Source: Eubacteriales bacterium
Lineage (GTDB): Bacteria; Bacillota; Clostridia; Saccharofermentanales; UBA5734
Assembly: GCA_028685755.1 (NCBI GenBank)
Contig: JAQUDJ010000001.1
Coordinates: 113,208 to 177,207 of the forward strand
Reading direction: 5' to 3'
DNA length: 64,000 bases
Part shown: one piece after another, positions 7,846 to 60,507 of the stretch
How the letters are laid out: each line of letters opens with the position of its first letter
Position numbering within the stretch: position 1 is the first letter of the stretch
Made by a program: the position numbers and the translations under genes
Notes under the pieces: generated by a model
Told to the model about the DNA's origin: nothing
The model's database searches: none
The model's input: the letters and a program-made list of their open reading frames with translations, nothing else

Positions 7846-8444
7846 CAGTCTTCTCCTCCAAAAATCCAGTCAGATAGGAGCTTGAGCCCACTATCTCCGG
7901 ATTTTTCCGGGTGAAACTGGGTGAGCAGGATGTTGTCCTGTTGGACTGCGGCGGCAAACCGTGTGCCGTGCTGGCTCCAGGCGGCGACAATTGAATCGTC
8001 GGCTGGATCACAGTAATAAGAATGGACAAAGTAAAAATGTTGGCCTTCGGGCAGTAACGCTAAGCGCGAGTCGGTCAGCTGATTCCAGCCCATATGTGGG
8101 ATTTTAAGCCCAGGTTGGGGCTGGAAACGGCGCACAATGCCTGGCAAAATACCGAGACCTTTGGCATCGCCTTCTTCGCTGGCTTCAAACATCAATTGCA
8201 TACCAAGACATACACCAAGGAAAGGTCGACCCGTTTTTAAAAAGTCGCCAATCGCCAGGTCGAGACCCTTTTTCTGTAGTTGTTCGGCGGCATAACTCAT
8301 TGCGCCAACCCCGGGCAAAATAACCCGATCGGCTTTAGCAATGGTTGCAGGGTCGCTGGTGATTTCGACACGTTGGCCGAGGTATGTCAGCGCTTTGGCA
8401 ACACTGCCGAGGTTGCCCATTTCGTAGTCTAGGATGGCAATCAT
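7845..8444 (-). CDS. hisH: Imidazole glycerol phosphate synthase glutaminase subunit
   Basis: 199 aa class-I glutamine amidotransferase (GVCLGMQL, FHPEKS). Confidence 0.93.
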   Translation of the reverse strand: MIAILDYEMGNLGSVAKALTYLGQRVEITSDPATIAKADRVILPGVGAMSYAAEQLQKKGLDLAIGDFLKTGRPFLGVCLGMQLMFEASEEGDAKGLGILPGIVRRFQPQPGLKIPHMGWNQLTDSRLALLPEGQHFYFVHSYYCDPADDSIVAAWSQHGTRFAAAVQQDNILLTQFHPEKSGDSGLKLLSDWIFGGED

Positions 8445-8460
8445 GGAATCTCCGTTCTGG

Positions 8461-8517
8461 TCGGATTCGGTCGGAATCGGTCGGATTCGATTGGATTCGC
8501 TTGGATTCGCTTGGATT
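8461..8517. repeat. Six phased 10-bp tandem units in the purC-hisH spacer
   Basis: The units are tcggattcgg / tcggaatcgg / tcggattcga / ttggattcgc / ttggattcgc / ttggatt. The core GGATTCG recurs every 10 bp exactly. Confidence 0.9.
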
Positions 8518-9406
8518 ATGCGAGGGTGAGGCCGGTCAAACGTTCATAAGCTTCGCGATATTTGGCGGCAGTTTTGGCAATGACTTCACTTGGCAGAGTC
8601 GGAGCAGGCGGGGTTTTGTCCCAGTCCAACGTTTCGAGCCATTCGCGCAGATATTGCTTGTCAAAGCTCTTTTGGGCGCGGCCGGGCTGATAGTCCGACT
8701 GCTCCCAGAACCGCGAGGAATCTGGGGTGAAAATCTCGTCGGCGACGACAAGATGGCCGTCGAGCAGACCAAATTCGAACTTCGTGTCGGCAAGGATAAT
8801 ACCACGGCTTTCCGCATATGCTGCGGCCTTTTCGTAGAGGGCAATACTCTTCTCTTCAAGTTTGGTTGCCATGGCGGAGCCGATCAATTTGCCGAGCTCG
8901 GCGATCGTGATATTGATGTCATGGCCTTCGTCGGCTTTGGTGGATGGGGTAAACATCGGTTTTGGGAGGCGGTCGCCTTGGCGCAAATCAGCTGGCATTT
9001 TGACGCCACTAATCGTGCCACTTTGCCGATATTCTTTGAGCGCGGAACCCTCAAGGTAACCGCGCACGATGCATTCGGCCGGGAGCATTTGCACTTTCTT
9101 GACCCACATCGAACGGCCACGCAATTGATCCTGGTACGGGGCTAAACTGGCAGGATACGCTGCCGGATCCGTTGAAATCACATGATTCGGGATCACATCT
9201 TTGGTGTAGTCAAACCAGAAGGCGGCAATGCTGTTCAGCACGGTGCCTTTGTCTGGGATCAATTCGTCAAAAACCACGTCAAAGGCGGAGATTCGATCGG
9301 TTACGACGATCAATAATGAGTCACCTAAATCGTAAACGTCTCGGACTTTACCACGGACGAAAAGAGGCAGTGGAATGAATGATGTGTCATTGAGCAAGTG
9401 TGACAT
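8516..9406 (-). CDS. purC: SAICAR synthetase (long, about 296-aa type)
   Basis: PurC motifs (RGKVRDVYD, LI.V.TDRISAFD, ADTKFEFG). The gene is embedded between hisB and hisH. Confidence 0.9.
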   Translation of the reverse strand: MSHLLNDTSFIPLPLFVRGKVRDVYDLGDSLLIVVTDRISAFDVVFDELIPDKGTVLNSIAAFWFDYTKDVIPNHVISTDPAAYPASLAPYQDQLRGRSMWVKKVQMLPAECIVRGYLEGSALKEYRQSGTISGVKMPADLRQGDRLPKPMFTPSTKADEGHDINITIAELGKLIGSAMATKLEEKSIALYEKAAAYAESRGIILADTKFEFGLLDGHLVVADEIFTPDSSRFWEQSDYQPGRAQKSFDKQYLREWLETLDWDKTPPAPTLPSEVIAKTAAKYREAYERLTGLTLA

Positions 9407-47969: not shown

Positions 47970-48311
47970 ATGGTAGCATCGCTTTCGACTCGACTCCGAA
48001 AGATCCGCAGACAGCGCAAATTGACTCAGTTGCAAATGTCTGTTTTATTAGGTGTCAAACGAACCACCTATGTTCATTACGAAACGGGCATTCGAAAGCC
48101 TTCAATTGATCAATTGATTCTAATGGCAAGCCAACTTGGCACATCATTAGATTATCTCGTCGGCATTTCAAACTTCGAATTGACTTACGAAAACGCTCAA
48201 AAAGGTGGCGTTGTGAAAAAAACTCGCCGCACACGTGGCGCAAACGCTAAAGCGTATGTTATTCCAAAACCTGATTTGTCTGAAGTCGCCGATCGCGATC
48301 CTGGCCAGTGA
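47970..48311 (+). CDS. XRE-family helix-turn-helix transcriptional regulator
   Basis: The HTH_3 pattern is LRKIRRQRKLTQLQMSVLLGV.RTTYVHYETG.R.PS. The gene starts 2 nt after the preceding stop. Confidence 0.85.
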   Translation: MVASLSTRLRKIRRQRKLTQLQMSVLLGVKRTTYVHYETGIRKPSIDQLILMASQLGTSLDYLVGISNFELTYENAQKGGVVKKTRRTRGANAKAYVIPKPDLSEVADRDPGQ

Positions 48312-48332
48312 CCCTGCTTTTCTGATTATTTC

Positions 48333-50024
48333 TTAACTGTTTTTTCGCTTGTCTTCATACATACGAGCATCACTGCGCGACAATATAGCATCAGATGATT
48401 CTTGACCTGGCACAAAATGTTCGATGCCAACTGAGATCCCAACGGATAATTCCCTATCATTCAAAATAAATGAATGAGTAAAGCTTTCCTTAATTCGTTC
48501 AACTAGTAATTTATCTTGATCCAGAGCATTAGTTTGAGCCAAAATCACGAATTCATCGCCACCTATTCGGTAAACATGATCTGTTGAACGAATGCAATTC
48601 TGGAGCCTGTTAGCGGATAATCGCAGGACCTCATCGCCTAAGGCATGCCCAAACGTATCATTAATCGATTTAAAACGGTTGAGATCAAGAAAGAGGATCG
48701 ATCGTTGAGCTTGGTCTCGGCTTTTCTGCCAATGATCTAGCTGTCGAAACATAGCTACGCGGTTGCCTAAACCGGTTAAAGGATCGCGTAATATTTCAGA
48801 TTCTAGCAAATCATGCTTTGACTTCACATTGGCGATTTGGATGACCACAAAAACTGAAATGAAAAGGACAAATAGGATTGAGGTAAAAAACAGGCCGTAT
48901 CGATTTTTTAGCGGGCTTATTTCAATAAGACCGCCGATAATAAGTGAACTAAATCCGATTGTGGCATATACAAAATCTTTATAATTATGCCTCAATCCAT
49001 TCACCAAGATATAAAGGGTGTAAGCAGTTAAGCCAATTATTACAATTTGTACATATACAAAGGACTCTGTTAATACAGCATTGGGGACGAGTAATACAAA
49101 AAGGATTGTCGCAGGAATTGCACCAAGGTAAATGTTAAATAAGATTGGTTTGCTTCGTTTGATTTTAAACTCTTCGAGTAACATCCCCGCTAAGGGAATA
49201 AATAAATAGCCACTCAAATATTCAATTCTGATTATCGCCATGAGTGGCATATTGGGAAATACGATTTGGATCAAATGGATCCCCGTACTAACCATGCGCA
49301 GTGCGATCATCAAAAGAAATGCTGCCATTAAAATTGAGCGATTTTCGCGTTGCCAAAGGCTGAGTAAAACAAATAACACTCCTAGTGCCAACACGAAGGC
49401 AAGAATCATGACTTCGATGCTCAAGAGATTATTAAAATGCTTTTCTATTGTTTTAGCTTGGCCTATCAATGGCGCATTCCAAAAGCCACCATTTGAACGT
49501 GAAAAATTTGCGATTTCTATGGTTATAATCGTCTGCCCAGATTGGTCTGCGATAAAATAACCTGTATCTGAATAGACTCTCGGTGTGTAGTCTGATTGTA
49601 CTTTACCAACCTGTCCATTTTGGAGGATAAGGTTGCCATTTATCATTAAAGAATAAGCACTGAATTCATCCTGAATATAAACCCCATACATCGATCCAGG
49701 CTGTAAACCGGTCACGATTAATCGATATGTTGCAAAGCCATACGCATAACCAGTCGCCGGGTCTTTGTCCCATTTGTGTTCAACTACTACGGTTTGAGGG
49801 TTTTCAGTTTGTCCGGTTGGGATTTCATTTGCTAGTAAGCCAGGATAATATTGCCAATCACCCAACAGATTATTCAATTGACGAACATCATTGAGTGTGA
49901 CATTCAAATGGCCATCAACCGCATGTACAGGAATCAATTTGATTTGTTGTACTTGCTGAACCCAGCCGACAAAGCCAATTACTATTATGACGAGAAAAAA
50001 TGTAGCAATCAATTTTTGTTTCAT
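48333..50024 (-). CDS. Diguanylate cyclase with a 7TM-DISM sensor module
   Basis: It has a signal anchor, an extracellular beta-rich domain, 7 TM segments and a GGDEF domain (RIGGDEFV). Confidence 0.88.
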   Translation of the reverse strand: MKQKLIATFFLVIIVIGFVGWVQQVQQIKLIPVHAVDGHLNVTLNDVRQLNNLLGDWQYYPGLLANEIPTGQTENPQTVVVEHKWDKDPATGYAYGFATYRLIVTGLQPGSMYGVYIQDEFSAYSLMINGNLILQNGQVGKVQSDYTPRVYSDTGYFIADQSGQTIITIEIANFSRSNGGFWNAPLIGQAKTIEKHFNNLLSIEVMILAFVLALGVLFVLLSLWQRENRSILMAAFLLMIALRMVSTGIHLIQIVFPNMPLMAIIRIEYLSGYLFIPLAGMLLEEFKIKRSKPILFNIYLGAIPATILFVLLVPNAVLTESFVYVQIVIIGLTAYTLYILVNGLRHNYKDFVYATIGFSSLIIGGLIEISPLKNRYGLFFTSILFVLFISVFVVIQIANVKSKHDLLESEILRDPLTGLGNRVAMFRQLDHWQKSRDQAQRSILFLDLNRFKSINDTFGHALGDEVLRLSANRLQNCIRSTDHVYRIGGDEFVILAQTNALDQDKLLVERIKESFTHSFILNDRELSVGISVGIEHFVPGQESSDAILSRSDARMYEDKRKNS

Positions 50025-56700: not shown

Positions 56701-57523
56701 GCTTGTAAATACCGACCCGAGCAAGGTCATAGCGTTTCGGATCGAAGAACATATTATGCAGTAGAGTCTCTGCGCCTTCGACGGAAATTGGTTCACCCGG
56801 ACGGAGTTTTTTGTAAAGTTCTTGGAGGCCTTCTTCACGCGTACGGCAACCGTCCTTGAGCATAGTCTGCGTCAAGCTGCTTTCTTCGCCAAAGGCTTCG
56901 ATGATTTGTTCGTTGGTACCAAAGCCCAAAGAACGCAGGAAAATGGTCAGGTGGAACTTACGCGTACGATCGACACGAACCCAAAGTAGGTCATTCGCGT
57001 CGGTTTCGTATTCAAGCCATGCACCGCGATTCGGAATAATCTGCGATGAGATCAGCTCCTTGTCGGTTTTGTCGGCAGCCATGGAGAAATAAGCACCTGG
57101 TGAACGGACGAGCTGCGAAATGATAACACGTTCGGCACCGTTAATAATAAACGTACCGTTGTCTGTCATAATCGGGAATTCGCCGATATAGATATACTGA
57201 TCTTTGAGGATGTCATCGCGTTTGTTATGCAAGCGCACTTTAACACGCATTGGCGAGGCAAAATTAGCGTCGCGTTCTTTGCATTCTTCGATAGCATATG
57301 TTGGACTTTGGGTGTCAAATTCCTTGTCGATGAATGAAAGCTCGATGTCGCCCGAATAATCGGTTATCGGCGATACATCGCGCAGGACCTCCATCAGGCC
57401 CTCATCCAGAAACCACTGGTAACTGTTTTTCTGGATTTCGATGAGATTCGGGATGTCAATGACCTCATCGATTCTCGAGTAGGACATTCTCTCGGCTCTT
57501 CCCAGTTTGACGGGACGCACCAT
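53720..57523 (-). CDS. rpoB: DNA-directed RNA polymerase subunit beta
   Basis: About 1267 aa with canonical beta motifs and an acidic C-terminal tail of about 80 aa. The ATG is at 57523, with GAGGTG 7 nt upstream. Confidence 0.98.
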
Positions 57524-57587
57524 CAATGATCACCTCACGCATATTCTAGGCTTTTAAAGGCCCGATTCCGGGTTCTAGAAAAAAGAA

Positions 57588-57615
57588 TTGACGAGTTCCC
57601 GGCTGATGCTATAAT
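57588..57615 (+). promoter_or_regulatory. Near-consensus plus-strand promoter inside the rpoB upstream region
   Basis: TTGACG (57588-57593), a 16-nt spacer and TGcTATAAT (57607-57615). It points away from rpoB. Confidence 0.5.
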
Positions 57616-57688
57616 TGACTTAAATCAAGTCAGTTCCAACCCCGAAAAGGGCAGGGAAATCCCCTCCACCTTCTAGGCGCGTTATAGT

Positions 57689-57717
57689 ATGTTATCACCA
57701 GTCTGTAAAAGTGTCAA
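57689..57717 (-). promoter_or_regulatory. Candidate rpoBC promoter
   Basis: On the minus strand, TTGACA (57717-57712), a 17-nt spacer and TGaTAACAT (57697-57689). This would give a leader of about 160 nt. Confidence 0.45.
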
Positions 57718-57740
57718 TTCAAATCGGCACTTTTTTTATT
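57707..57740. terminator. Bidirectional intrinsic terminator overlapping the rpoB -35
   Basis: AAAAGTGTC-10 nt-GGCACTTTT forms a 9-bp stem that includes one G-U pair. T7 follows on the plus strand. The paired A-tract supplies a U-run on the minus strand. Confidence 0.5.
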
Positions 57741-58006
57741 GCCAAAATTTCAGTTTCCAAAAGATTCACAAGTTAAAAGGGATACTCGCTTTCCTCCAGT
57801 GACGGGGCGTTCTGGAGGTAGCGGTGGTGGTGATTTTGGCGTTAGCTGATCTAGGCGATTGAAGTGGGACTAATCAAAAAATGAAGTTTTTGATAGCATT
57901 CAATCTGACATCCTTATTGCAACCGTGAAGATCATGCATAAGGAGATCATTCATAAAAAGGATAACGGACCTAATCGCCTAGAAATCGAACATTCCGGTT
58001 CACTTT

Positions 58007-58038
58007 CCCAAAAGGGTACGACCCCATCCGCCGAGCGA
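58007..58038. repeat. Inverted partial copy of the 44-bp unit
   Basis: cccaaaagggtacgaccccatccg is the imperfect reverse complement of cggatgggtgtccgtagcccttttgg in the tandem units. It is followed by a direct-oriented CCGAGCGA. Confidence 0.85.
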
Positions 58039-58045
58039 GTTCGCA

Positions 58046-58079
58046 GAAACGCCGTAATCGCAGGCGATTACGGCGTTTC
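58046..58079. other. Perfect 15-bp stem / 4-nt loop hairpin
   Basis: GAAACGCCGTAATCG-CAGG-CGATTACGGCGTTTC. No U-tract follows on either strand. Confidence 0.9.
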
Positions 58080-58086
58080 GAGAATG

Positions 58087-58216
58087 TCCGAGCGAACGGA
58101 TGGGTGTCCGTAGCCCTTTTGGTTGTGTTTTCCGAGCGAACGGATGGGTGTCCGTATCCCTTTTGGTTGTGTTTTCCGAGCGAACGGATGGGTGTCCGTC
58201 GCTCTTTTGGCAATTT
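58087..58216. repeat. Three tandem 44-bp units (REP/BIME-like or terminator array)
   Basis: The units are 58087-58130, 58131-58174 and 58175-58216. Units 1 and 2 are 43/44 identical. Unit 3 shares the first 25 nt, gains a longer stem, and overlaps the PPIase stop codon. Confidence 0.92.
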
Positions 58217-59732
58217 ACGGGACGAATTTCAGACCAAGACCCTTTAATTCAAACGGGTAGGCCGTGCGCGTTTCTTCAACATAAGCTGTGTAGGCTTCAT
58301 CAAGGAGGATGTCTTTGATGTTAAGTTTCCATTCTGGTTCACTGTCGGAAATGAAATACATGATGTGGAAGCCGTAGTTGGTTTGGACGATGCCGGTGTC
58401 ACCTGGGAGACGCGCTGCATCAAATGCCCAATTGTTGAAGGTTTCGACCATTTGACCCGGGTAGACGTTTTCGTAGAGGCCGCCAGCATCAGCATTGTCT
58501 TCTGAATTGGTTTTGGCTAATTCGGCAAAGGCATCTTCAGTTCTGTCGCCTGCTGTGTATTGTGCCAAAATGCCTTCAGCTTTTGTTTTTGCGGCAGCAA
58601 TTTCTTCAGGTGTGGCAGTTGTTTCGTCAGCCGTAATCAGGATATGACGGACATTGACACGGGTCTGATCATCAATTGAACGATCAATGAAATACAACAC
58701 GGACGATCCTGTTGTGTCATCTACGACTGCAATGTCCCCGATTTTGCGGGTTGCATCAAATAGCCAGGATGATTGAATCAAAGAAGATATGTCACTATAC
58801 CGTATGTTTGATGATAAGGAGGCGTCACTGTTCGTGTAGCTTTCCTTGGCATCTGCGGTGGCATTCGCAATGGCCTGAGCTTTGAAGCTTTCTTCATCGC
58901 TGATTAGTGTTTTCATTGCTTCAGCTTTGGCTTTGGCATCTGCTAACGCTTTTGTCGATTCTTCATCGGTTGCGCCTTCAGCGATTTCAGCTGCGAAGAA
59001 GAAACTGCGGAAGTTCACGATATCAAATTCATCTTGATGCGCTTGGTAATAAGCGCTGAGTTGGTCATCCGTAATGGCAAAATCAGATCTTTTTTGTTCG
59101 GCAAATTTATTGGCCAAAAGTAATTTTTCAAAAACTGGGGTCAAGGATGCTTCTGAAGCGCCTTTACCAAAATATTGGGCCATATAGTTCGTGGTACTGA
59201 CCCCGGCTTGTGTGGCAGCGTCGGCAATCGAAACGAAAAAATCTGTAATGAGAGTATGATCTGCTTCTTCAAGGGTTAAACCCGCTTTGGCGGCCTCAAC
59301 AGATAGCATGTGGTTTTCTTGAACAGATTCTGCTGCATAATTCAGAATGTAATCTTGCATGGTTTCATAGCCATCGGTGTAGCTAGGTCCGGCAAGAAAT
59401 TCGGTCTTGGCAATTTCATCTGTAAAATCAATGCCATAATTGCTAGCGATCATGTAAAAATAGTAGTTCATTTCAACAGCTTTGATTTTGTCACCGTTGA
59501 CATCCATGACGGACAATTGCTGTTGGGGCAAACCACTGTTCACACCATACCAGCCGCCACCTGCCAAGAGAGCGACAACGAGGACGACTGCGAGGATGAT
59601 TCGGACGAGCGGGCTACCCATTTTGATCGGTTTTTTACCGCCGCGTTTGTCTTTCAAGCCTTCTAGCCGTTCTTTGCGTTCTTCGCGGGCTTTTTCCGCA
59701 TTCCACTGCTGTTCGTTTTTTTGTTCAGTCAT
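58215..59732 (-). CDS. Membrane-anchored parvulin-type peptidyl-prolyl isomerase (PrsA/SurA-like)
   Basis: It has a Lys-rich N-terminus, a TM helix, a long chaperone-like domain and a parvulin domain (VNVRHILI, NYGFHIMY). The start is set at the ATG at 59732, which has an AGGATGG RBS. The ORF track extends to 59807, which has no RBS. Confidence 0.85.
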   Translation of the reverse strand: MTEQKNEQQWNAEKAREERKERLEGLKDKRGGKKPIKMGSPLVRIILAVVLVVALLAGGGWYGVNSGLPQQQLSVMDVNGDKIKAVEMNYYFYMIASNYGIDFTDEIAKTEFLAGPSYTDGYETMQDYILNYAAESVQENHMLSVEAAKAGLTLEEADHTLITDFFVSIADAATQAGVSTTNYMAQYFGKGASEASLTPVFEKLLLANKFAEQKRSDFAITDDQLSAYYQAHQDEFDIVNFRSFFFAAEIAEGATDEESTKALADAKAKAEAMKTLISDEESFKAQAIANATADAKESYTNSDASLSSNIRYSDISSLIQSSWLFDATRKIGDIAVVDDTTGSSVLYFIDRSIDDQTRVNVRHILITADETTATPEEIAAAKTKAEGILAQYTAGDRTEDAFAELAKTNSEDNADAGGLYENVYPGQMVETFNNWAFDAARLPGDTGIVQTNYGFHIMYFISDSEPEWKLNIKDILLDEAYTAYVEETRTAYPFELKGLGLKFVP

Positions 59733-59898: not shown

Positions 59899-60507
59899 TT
59901 ATTTAGTTGGAGTGGTTTTGGGTCGGGGTTGGCGCGGGGGTGCTTTGAAGCCAAGTTCGGCCGCTTTTTTATAAAATGATGTGCTGCGCAGATTGGCTAG
60001 CGCCGCTGCTTCACGACCAGTAAGTTGGCCTTGAGACCAGCGTTGGCAGATATCACGGAATGCTGCTGGGATCGCAACGGGTGGTCGGCCGATCCGTCGT
60101 CCTTGGCCACGAGCGATTTGAATGCCTTGCTTTTTACGTTCAGACTGGAATTCAAAATCAAGTTCTGCAAAGGTTCGCAGAATTTTTAAACTTTGGCGAC
60201 CAGTTGCACTTCGGCTATCAAAACCATCTTCAAGCAAAACCAGTTCAGCGCCCTTGGCTTCAATCTGAAAATAAACGTCAAGAAAATCTCGGCTTTGACG
60301 ACAGAACCGATCGGCAGCTGCAGCAAATACCACATCGCCAGTAACAAGGACATCGAGAAGTTTCTGGCGTTGCTCAAGCTTGTCGGAGCGCGGTGTCAAT
60401 CGCTCGACATAAATTTTATCGAAATTGCCGATGGTATCGAGTTGCATCGCTTGGCGGCTGACTTCTTTTTCAATCTGATCCAATAACATATAGGCGTATC
60501 GGGACAT
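59899..60507 (-). CDS. Serine-recombinase (resolvase/invertase) homologue lacking the catalytic serine
   Basis: It aligns by eye to gamma-delta resolvase over the catalytic domain and the C-terminal HTH. The YARVST nucleophile motif reads YAYMLL here. GGAGAG RBS. It starts 1 nt after the HAD gene stop. Confidence 0.75.
   Translation of the reverse strand: MSRYAYMLLDQIEKEVSRQAMQLDTIGNFDKIYVERLTPRSDKLEQRQKLLDVLVTGDVVFAAAADRFCRQSRDFLDVYFQIEAKGAELVLLEDGFDSRSATGRQSLKILRTFAELDFEFQSERKKQGIQIARGQGRRIGRPPVAIPAAFRDICQRWSQGQLTGREAAALANLRSTSFYKKAAELGFKAPPRQPRPKTTPTK

Follow-up and report, generated by a model that had tools for sequence, protein, structure and literature searches.

The PPIase-rpoB spacer and its palindrome

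We analyzed a window of 64,000 nucleotides from an Eubacteriales bacterium (NCBI GenBank assembly GCA_028685755.1, contig JAQUDJ010000001.1, positions 113,208 to 177,207 of the forward strand), in which a nested palindrome and an array of 44-bp repeats are situated directly downstream of a gene for a parvulin-type peptidyl-prolyl isomerase (PPIase). The gene (58215-59732, minus strand) codes for 505 amino acids and its product is identical to NCBI MDD2533233.1 (MAG, i.e. metagenome-assembled genome: Eubacteriales bacterium); exact-protein look-up gave no record for the 530-aa PPIase open reading frame (ORF) or for P0001. The next gene on the same strand is rpoB, followed by rpoC, and the array lies within the 690-bp spacer between the PPIase gene and rpoB. 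A promoter-like site of rpoB, TTGACA-17-TAACAT (57689-57717, minus strand), which is conserved in relatives, is found about 290 nt downstream of the palindrome, which is therefore placed between the PPIase stop codon and the rpoB promoter.

Tandem Repeats Finder (TRF) delimited the array at 58087-58210, with 2.8 copies of period 44, 95% matches and a score of 227, and a repeat search placed three units in register at 58087-58130 (100%), 58131-58174 (98%) and 58175-58218 (82%). These searches recovered every component that the initial annotation had described from the letters alone: the palindrome, the 44-bp array, an inverted partial unit, a direct motif and a 15-bp hairpin. Unit 1 (58087-58130) consists of box 1 (described below) minus its first base, an arm of the palindrome and the linker TTGTGTTT. 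Unit 2 (58131-58174) carries the box-1 variant TTCGCTCGGAA (minus strand) and differs from unit 1 at one of 44 positions; the two are therefore the product of a recent duplication, as had been proposed. Unit 3 (58175-58210) is diverged; its local stem, GAGCGA(A)CGGA/TCCGTCGCTC, is longer, and TTTT comes after it on the plus strand, again as first described. The statement that the array overlaps the PPIase stop codon, with unit 3 supplying it, had to be corrected. The array only abuts the stop codon (58215-58217, minus strand) across a 4-nt gap, because the similarity of unit 3 ends at about 58210 and the stop codon lies in a non-homologous tail. Exactly three copies of the 24-mer CCGAGCGAACGGATGGGTGTCCGT are present; with up to 3 mismatches allowed, the window has no further one, and shuffles give an expectation of 0.

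In the sense of the PPIase gene (minus strand) each unit reads arm, box 1 and a linker of 8-9 nt, and only unit 1 is followed by an inner hairpin, box 2 and a second arm. The complete element, 58122 to 58005 on the minus strand, is composed of arm, box 1, ATTCTCG, a perfect hairpin, CTGCG, box 2 and arm'. The 5' outer arm (58097-58122), which lies within unit 1, pairs in the folds of both strands with the 3' outer arm' (58005-58030), the latter corresponding to the inverted partial unit (58007-58030). Next to box 1 the 5' arm has GACACCC, which is common to the arms of the window, L013, the L014 genome and L051 (L numbers designate loci used for comparison). Box 1 (58086-58096) is TTCGCTCGGAC on the minus and GTCCGAGCGAA on the plus strand, and is a conserved block of the orthologous PPIase-rpoB spacers. 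Box 2 (58031-58041) is AACTCGCTCGG on the minus and CCGAGCGAGTT on the plus strand; here a fourth direct CCGAGCGA (58031-58038) adjoins the inverted partial unit. Between the boxes is the inner segment (58042-58085, minus strand), which contains a perfect 16-nt inverted repeat (58046-58061 and 58064-58079) forming a 15-bp stem with a 4-nt loop.

The pairing of the inverted copy with unit 1 in a hairpin of about 120 nt, suggested earlier, is predicted for both strands, with -70.5 and -69.8 kcal/mol and z = -9.3 and -8.9 for the two. When the whole region is folded, arm' pairs with unit 1, and units 2 and 3 keep their small hairpins. Small ORFs over the array (57925-58113 on the plus and 57971-58213 on the minus strand) have no coding support, and the 44-bp period is not a multiple of three. 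A CRISPR or type III antitoxin array was also rejected, as there are no spacers and no toxin gene.

Orthologous spacers and a dispersed family

As relatives we took the loci of retrieved PPIase homologues. In every relative examined the upstream synteny CNNM-HAD-resolvase-PPIase is kept. Downstream, rpoB follows the PPIase gene, as in the window, in L017 (66% PPIase identity), L013 (67%) and L014 (62%), and in relatives with 75-77% identity another gene or the end of the contig is found. The adjacency of the PPIase gene and rpoB is genuine because L017, L013 and L014 show the same order, which rules out misassembly as its cause; L016 (60%), also cited against misassembly, has an extra gene between a canonical terminator and rpoB. 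In three relatives lacking the element, L004 and L007 (both of the 75-77% group) and L016, the PPIase gene is followed by a canonical intrinsic terminator.

In the sense of the PPIase gene the spacers of L017, L013 and L014 are built of an arm, TTCGCTCGRAC, a short GC hairpin, AACTCGCTCNG and a second arm. The sequence of the arms varies among these orthologous spacers with their complementarity kept, and the boxes form a direct repeat. A four-way alignment of the spacers shows conservation only in box 1, box 2 and the rpoB promoter and leader. L013 and L017 also have a solitary degenerate half-unit directly after the PPIase stop codon. Unit 3 of the window matches the half-unit of L017 by position and by the sequence ...CCATCCG-TTCGCT, and by this comparison it is probably orthologous to the solitary half-units of both relatives.

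The three 44-bp units of the window are a local tandem amplification of one arm and box 1. They could have originated by slippage or unequal exchange, with unit 3 as the older half-unit common to relatives and units 1 and 2 produced by a later duplication. There is no support for a dedicated function of the triplication.

Two further observations concern the same junction. The locus is a synteny breakpoint among relatives, where the PPIase gene is followed either by rpoB or by an ABC-transporter binding-protein gene. Two independent assemblies of a 75%-identity relative (L011, 7519-7575, and L012, 5332-5389) both end 57-58 nt past the PPIase stop codon, which suggests a repeat or an insertion sequence (IS) at the same spot.

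The element is a member of a family of dispersed, nested palindromes, present in at least two bacterial phyla and, as it appears, uncatalogued. A scan of metagenomes with the two-box pattern TTCGCTCGRAC-N{20,50}-AACTCGCTCNG gave 64 loci. About 30 of the 64 have complementary arms directly adjoining the boxes, with 8 or more of 12 positions in Watson-Crick pairs, which is seen in 3% of randomly combined flanks; the rest have the appearance of chance or coding matches. In an alignment of 31 sequences, picked for arm complementarity, 75.8% of the cells of the outer 20 bp are paired versus 39-47% in slid controls, double changes are found at 20/20 pairs, and the covariation score is 0.655 versus 0.16-0.23. 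A covariance model built from this alignment detected further, non-ascertained copies in related loci, and its single significant match in the window is 58007-58122 (57 bits, E 5e-12; next best E > 1). Among family members the arms, like the inner hairpin, vary by lineage, self-complementarity being kept, and the two boxes in direct orientation are conserved. Other members have a different GC hairpin of 20-50 nt in the inner position.

The family was found on about 30 other metagenome contigs with host loci of 50-73% GC, and conservation of the boxes extends from an Eubacteriales clade with 50% GC to contigs of Actinomycetota type with 65-73% GC. One of the host lineages was placed in the Eggerthellaceae (Actinomycetota) on account of a RelA 86% identical to that of Adlercreutzia. 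In this Eggerthellaceae-like lineage at least nine distinct loci carry copies about 85% similar, five of the contigs belonging to one sample with 16-20x coverage. The metagenome sample of L014 has the family at five or more loci, with 2-3 copies per 7-kb locus.

Copies are situated in intergenic spacers, mostly just past stop codons, and housekeeping genes such as pheS/pheT, relA, glmS and amt are among their neighbors; no neighboring gene recurs among the roughly 30 family loci. In all seven loci with co-directional neighbors the sense strand is the one with TTCGCTC. Copies occur in clusters, in tandem and as inverted pairs; tandem or inverted neighbors are found in L014, L052, L056, L074 and L082-L085, and the family is therefore prone to local amplification. 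The relA-MBL spacer of L072 is about 270 nt long and contains the element and that of Adlercreutzia is 7 nt long and empty; the element was therefore gained or lost at this site, and the two spacers are too diverged for defining the ends of the element.

The exact 44-bp unit is local, as a search of genomes had been expected to clarify: a 20-mer of it gave three single chance matches in unrelated sequence among 185,579 species genomes (a set without the source genome), and plasmids, phages and viral contigs had no match to the exact unit. The initial annotation had held that a unit unique to this locus and invariant would contradict its likeness to repetitive extragenic palindromic (REP) sequences, and at the family level this is not the case. 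A known Rfam family, also suggested as a possible explanation, does not account for it. Rfam 15 had no match at gathering thresholds in the whole window or in 15 family loci, and only chance-level matches at E <= 10 in 57500-58300 and the family loci. In the literature, searched by box sequence and topic, no description of the family was found.

Two groups of loci should be mentioned separately. L065 (2984-3105) has the same right arm and flank as L025 (1578-1699) and L033, and its left arm diverges about 8 nt outside box 1, which is consistent with recombination between different family copies. Six loci (L034, L049, L067, L071, L073 and L081) have a conserved sequence of about 110 nt with both boxes and no complementary arms, TTCGCT-TTCGCTCGGAC-gagccgac...-AACTCGCTCCG-ctcgcgac. 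This sequence could be coding or could represent another element.

Box 2 is the insertion point of IS110-family elements in relatives

In L013 and L014 the palindrome is interrupted at box 2 by an IS110-family element, i.e. one of the bridge-RNA type. The IS110 of L014 is 1765 bp long (transposase P0121). Four other contigs of its sample contain five more copies, and a tandem contig from another sample (ctg39040c) adds to these; seven near-identical copies were counted at five loci, ctg39040c being an eighth context. The copies are 0-3 substitutions apart and one differs by 1 bp in length. For every copy the insertion point is AACTCG-CT^C(G/T)G in a family element, the loci being the recG-uvrB region, argJ/clpB, radical-SAM/ABC and dnaJ-NUDIX. 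IS110 copies in family elements at different loci demonstrate dispersal of the family within a Clostridia organism related to that of the window. Box 2 of the window is the identical 11-mer, and the window itself has no IS.

The left end of the L014-type IS contains AACTCGCT and, 26 nt further on, CCGAG. The former is a sense match to the left target and core, the latter the complement of the core and right target; this guide-like arrangement is, at the level of sequence, what the target loop of a bridge RNA would need. The IS110 of L013, with a transposase only 26% identical to the L014-type one, is found in the opposite strand a few bases from there, at CCGAGCGAGT^TCCGCAG. Its left end has GAGCGAGTT; a second guide, complementary to the right target, was not found there. 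No IS110 gene was found near the family copies in the approximately 30 metagenome loci.

The tandem contig ctg39040c (ERZ21878447; L086-L091) is 16.7 kb long, has a circular-type name ending in "c" and consists only of about eight tandem repeats, each made of the 1765-bp IS110 and a 202-bp spacer with a family element. It could represent tandem IS amplification, circle concatemers or an assembly artefact. In L085 (2658-6391) two tandem copies of IS110 and spacer are found in a chromosomal context.

Role, propagation and relation to known elements

We consider that the locus contains a dispersed nested intergenic palindrome, one half of which was tandemly amplified, that it probably serves as a hairpin at the 3' end of the PPIase transcript, and that it belongs to a family of IS110 targets; we give this reading a probability of about 70%. 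The long hairpin of the window, with a U4 tract on either strand, would replace the canonical PPIase terminator of the element-free relatives and could therefore be a 3'-end hairpin acting as terminator, mRNA stabilizer or insulator. As an insulator it would stand between the PPIase gene and the promoter of rpoB, which is 290 nt downstream. After the long hairpin the minus strand continues with CCCUUUUGGG, the U4 of which can pair with the A4 of the other arm. In the L014-type genome an A-tract, a GC stem and a T-tract frame the elements, themselves long nested palindromes; as far as sequence can tell, this is the shape of a bidirectional terminator. A terminator function across the family in general is doubtful.

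Several results weigh against the proposed reading. The covariation count is partly circular, because the sequences were picked for arm complementarity, and the invariance of the boxes is partly a matter of ascertainment, copies found by the model alone showing 1-4 changes per box. The 64-kb window has exactly one copy, so that dispersal in the source organism is inferred from relatives. Mobility is argued from presence/absence and copy number only, because no transposase, no REP-associated tyrosine transposase (RAYT) and no target-site duplication was identified. A consensus terminator scan gave no minus-strand site in the window, the plus-strand sites being in units 2 and 3 only; high-GC members have no U tracts, and some copies are inside operons (pheS-pheT, relA-MBL). 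Finally, the mismatches of the arms show a G.U bias in favor of the strand opposite to sense, for which a hairpin of the 3' untranslated region (UTR) does not account.

This strand asymmetry can be described as follows. The mismatches are mostly A x C on the sense (TTCGCTC) strand, which correspond to G.U or G.T on the opposite strand (about 19-25 versus 3-5), and that opposite strand, which carries CCGAGCGA, folds more stably in 4/4 members tested. On it the boxes pair as CG/CG, AG x AG and CGAG/UUCG. The asymmetry may reflect a strand-specific step with single-stranded DNA in propagation. Going further, one could tentatively picture a class of non-autonomous mobile or structured single-stranded DNA elements, read across phyla by a conserved enzyme which is neither RAYT nor an IS110 seen here, although we hold this as the less probable view. 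The conserved center would then be the two direct CGAGCG boxes with a tandem purine mismatch and a flanking TCC/GGA rung, the G.T asymmetry and the sense-orientation bias would be marks of strand-specific copying, and the IS110 bridge RNAs would have evolved against the family as a universal safe harbor.

It is unlikely that the element is an IS110 relic or miniature, i.e. that the inner hairpin is a tiny non-autonomous insert which a bridge recombinase placed in a TTCG-CT-CGG hairpin loop. In that case box 1 (left target, CT, left end; LT-CT-LE) and box 2 (right end, CT, right target; RE-CT-RT) would be the junctions of the insert. The boxes do share a direct TCG-CT-CGG around a variable insert, as expected of site-specific insertion with a CT core, IS110 demonstrably acts on box 2, and tandem arrays of IS plus spacer are known in the data. 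However, the ends of both IS110s (AGTAC...GCTGGT and TTGTATC...GCTGGT) are unlike the boxes and the roughly 30 metagenome loci have no IS110 gene. Such an origin also requires pre-existing hairpins sharing a 9-nt loop (the TTCGCTCGG loop) in distant phyla, and within the Eggerthellaceae-like lineage the arms belong to the repeated unit. As an IS110 target the family does resemble other target hairpins, such as the REP stem-loop required by ISPpu10: it is a conserved, multi-copy intergenic sequence associated with a hairpin and a CT core, with a fixed IS position and guide-like matches to the target in the left end of the IS. It differs in that it is another target family with Clostridia hosts, where two unrelated IS110s use one box on opposite strands.

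The initial annotation had called the array REP/BIME-like (BIME, bacterial interspersed mosaic element), and this holds for behavior: the family is dispersed in relatives, lies after stop codons, forms clusters and is hit by IS110. Like REP, BIME and REPIN elements it is an intergenic, post-stop or in-operon, multi-copy hairpin in clustered, tandem or inverted arrangement, and IS621, ISPpu9 and ISPpu10 insert in the REPs of E. coli and Pseudomonas. For REPs, roles in termination and mRNA stabilization have been proposed (PMC6006769). Canonical membership, with the units as 5'-tagged REP hairpins mobilized by a RAYT (TnpA-REP) encoded elsewhere, could be claimed on the plus strand, where a unit resembles a tag (CCGAGCGA) followed by a small hairpin (ACGGA-TGGGTG-TCCGT) and a tail, and the clusters, inverted pairs, post-gene position and attraction of IS110 would fit. 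We find it improbable nevertheless. The tag of REPs is an unpaired GTAG or GTGG (or CGTC) 0-2 nt 5' of the hairpin foot (PMC6006769, PMC3733652); in the 31-sequence alignment there is no conserved tetranucleotide at the foot of the arms, and the GTAG reported beside the hairpin is present in unit 1 but changed to GTAT in unit 2 and GTCG in unit 3. The small hairpin within the arm is specific to the window and is no feature of the family. The nested palindromes of the family measure about 100-190 nt (116 nt for that of the window, with a maximum of about 190 nt in the L014-type genome) and are longer than the REP hairpin of about 20-65 nt, which has a basal stem of 7-20 bp and a small loop. The two central 11-nt boxes are direct, not inverted, repeats and are conserved across phyla, whereas REPs are species-specific (PMC6006769, PMC3733652), and no association with RAYT or any other recurrent neighboring gene was seen among the roughly 30 family loci. 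The main text of these two surveys does not mention Firmicutes or Actinobacteria. The family therefore works like REP/BIME or REPIN elements and is not a member of them.

Even less probable is a structured non-coding RNA or single-stranded DNA motif on the plus strand, built around the ladder of box pairs given above and with the units as its terminators. The G.U distribution and the stability of the CCGAGCGA strand described above would agree with it, as would the scores of units 2 and 3 as plus-strand terminator-like sites. Functional RNAs do not typically have near-perfect outer stems of 20-26 bp or many dispersed copies, though; the orientation bias makes the other strand the sense strand, the window has no promoter or plus-strand gene upstream, and Rfam has no matching family. 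For the same locus a plus-strand terminator array had been offered as an alternative, and there is no plus-strand gene for it to serve. A purely local, slippage-duplicated PPIase 3' UTR or terminator outside any repeat family, although the exact unit was found at this locus alone, as a single copy in 64 kb and where the PPIase terminator would be, is contradicted by the covariance model and the box pattern, which detect the architecture in another phylum as well as at many unrelated loci.

Long imperfect palindromes that are non-coding, dispersed, site-polymorphic and possibly terminators are also found among MITEs (miniature inverted-repeat transposable elements), Correia, ERIC, BOX and RUP sequences and enterococcal and rickettsial palindromic elements. 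In our family the outer arms, which would correspond to terminal inverted repeats, are variable and the center is conserved, the opposite of what a MITE shows; the arms differ from lineage to lineage and are conserved within one, and no target-site duplication or parent IS was identified. With the attC sites of integrons the family shares an imperfect palindrome, short conserved boxes, a variable center and strand-asymmetric pairing. Some IS110/IS1111 elements target attC. This candidate was rejected since the RYYYAAC and GTTRRRY sites of attC are inverted at the base of the hairpin and the boxes of the family are direct, internal and off consensus; moreover, there are no gene cassettes or intI, and the neighbors are housekeeping genes (pheS, relA, glmS).

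Some neighboring features of the window were also considered. A small serine recombinase (202 aa, 59899-60507, minus strand; Resolvase domain at residues 15-137) was rejected as a partner of the element, being syntenic also in element-free relatives; it looks like a core or domesticated gene, not part of a mobile element. The rpoB promoter with its leader of about 190 nt (57527-57745, minus strand) is about 90% identical in L013, L014 and L017 and recognizable in L016, unlike the rest of the PPIase-rpoB spacer, which is not alignable. It contains TTGACA-17-TGATAACAT, and on the opposite strand the near-consensus TTGACG-16-TGcTATAAT (57588-57615). There is no Rfam match, and the RNAalifold fold is plausible with covariation in only 2/55 pairs. 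The region is regarded as encoding a candidate rpoB leader RNA, whether or not an antisense promoter is also present. At 8459-8517 a 10-nt tandem repeat, GGTCGGATTC, is present in 5.9 copies, with ORFs on both strands (8384-9145 plus, 8516-9406 minus). Finally, 48001-50000 has a GC content of 0.40 versus about 0.50 elsewhere; it covers a 563-aa ORF (48333-50024) just downstream of rpoC and may be foreign DNA.

If confirmed, these results would establish a family of REP-like repeats in lineages of Gram-positive bacteria (Bacillota and Actinomycetota), and the conservation of its 11-nt boxes across phyla would be unusual among extragenic palindromes. The family would be a natural, multi-copy and hairpin-embedded target of at least two unrelated IS110 bridge recombinases. 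This bears on the choice of safe harbors by RNA-guided IS110 elements and on the role of target structure, as reported for ISPpu10. For annotation it would mean that in these genomes an element of this kind can take the place of the terminator after a housekeeping gene, and that it is a mark of spacers prone to rearrangement and to IS insertion, the PPIase-rpoB junction being an example.

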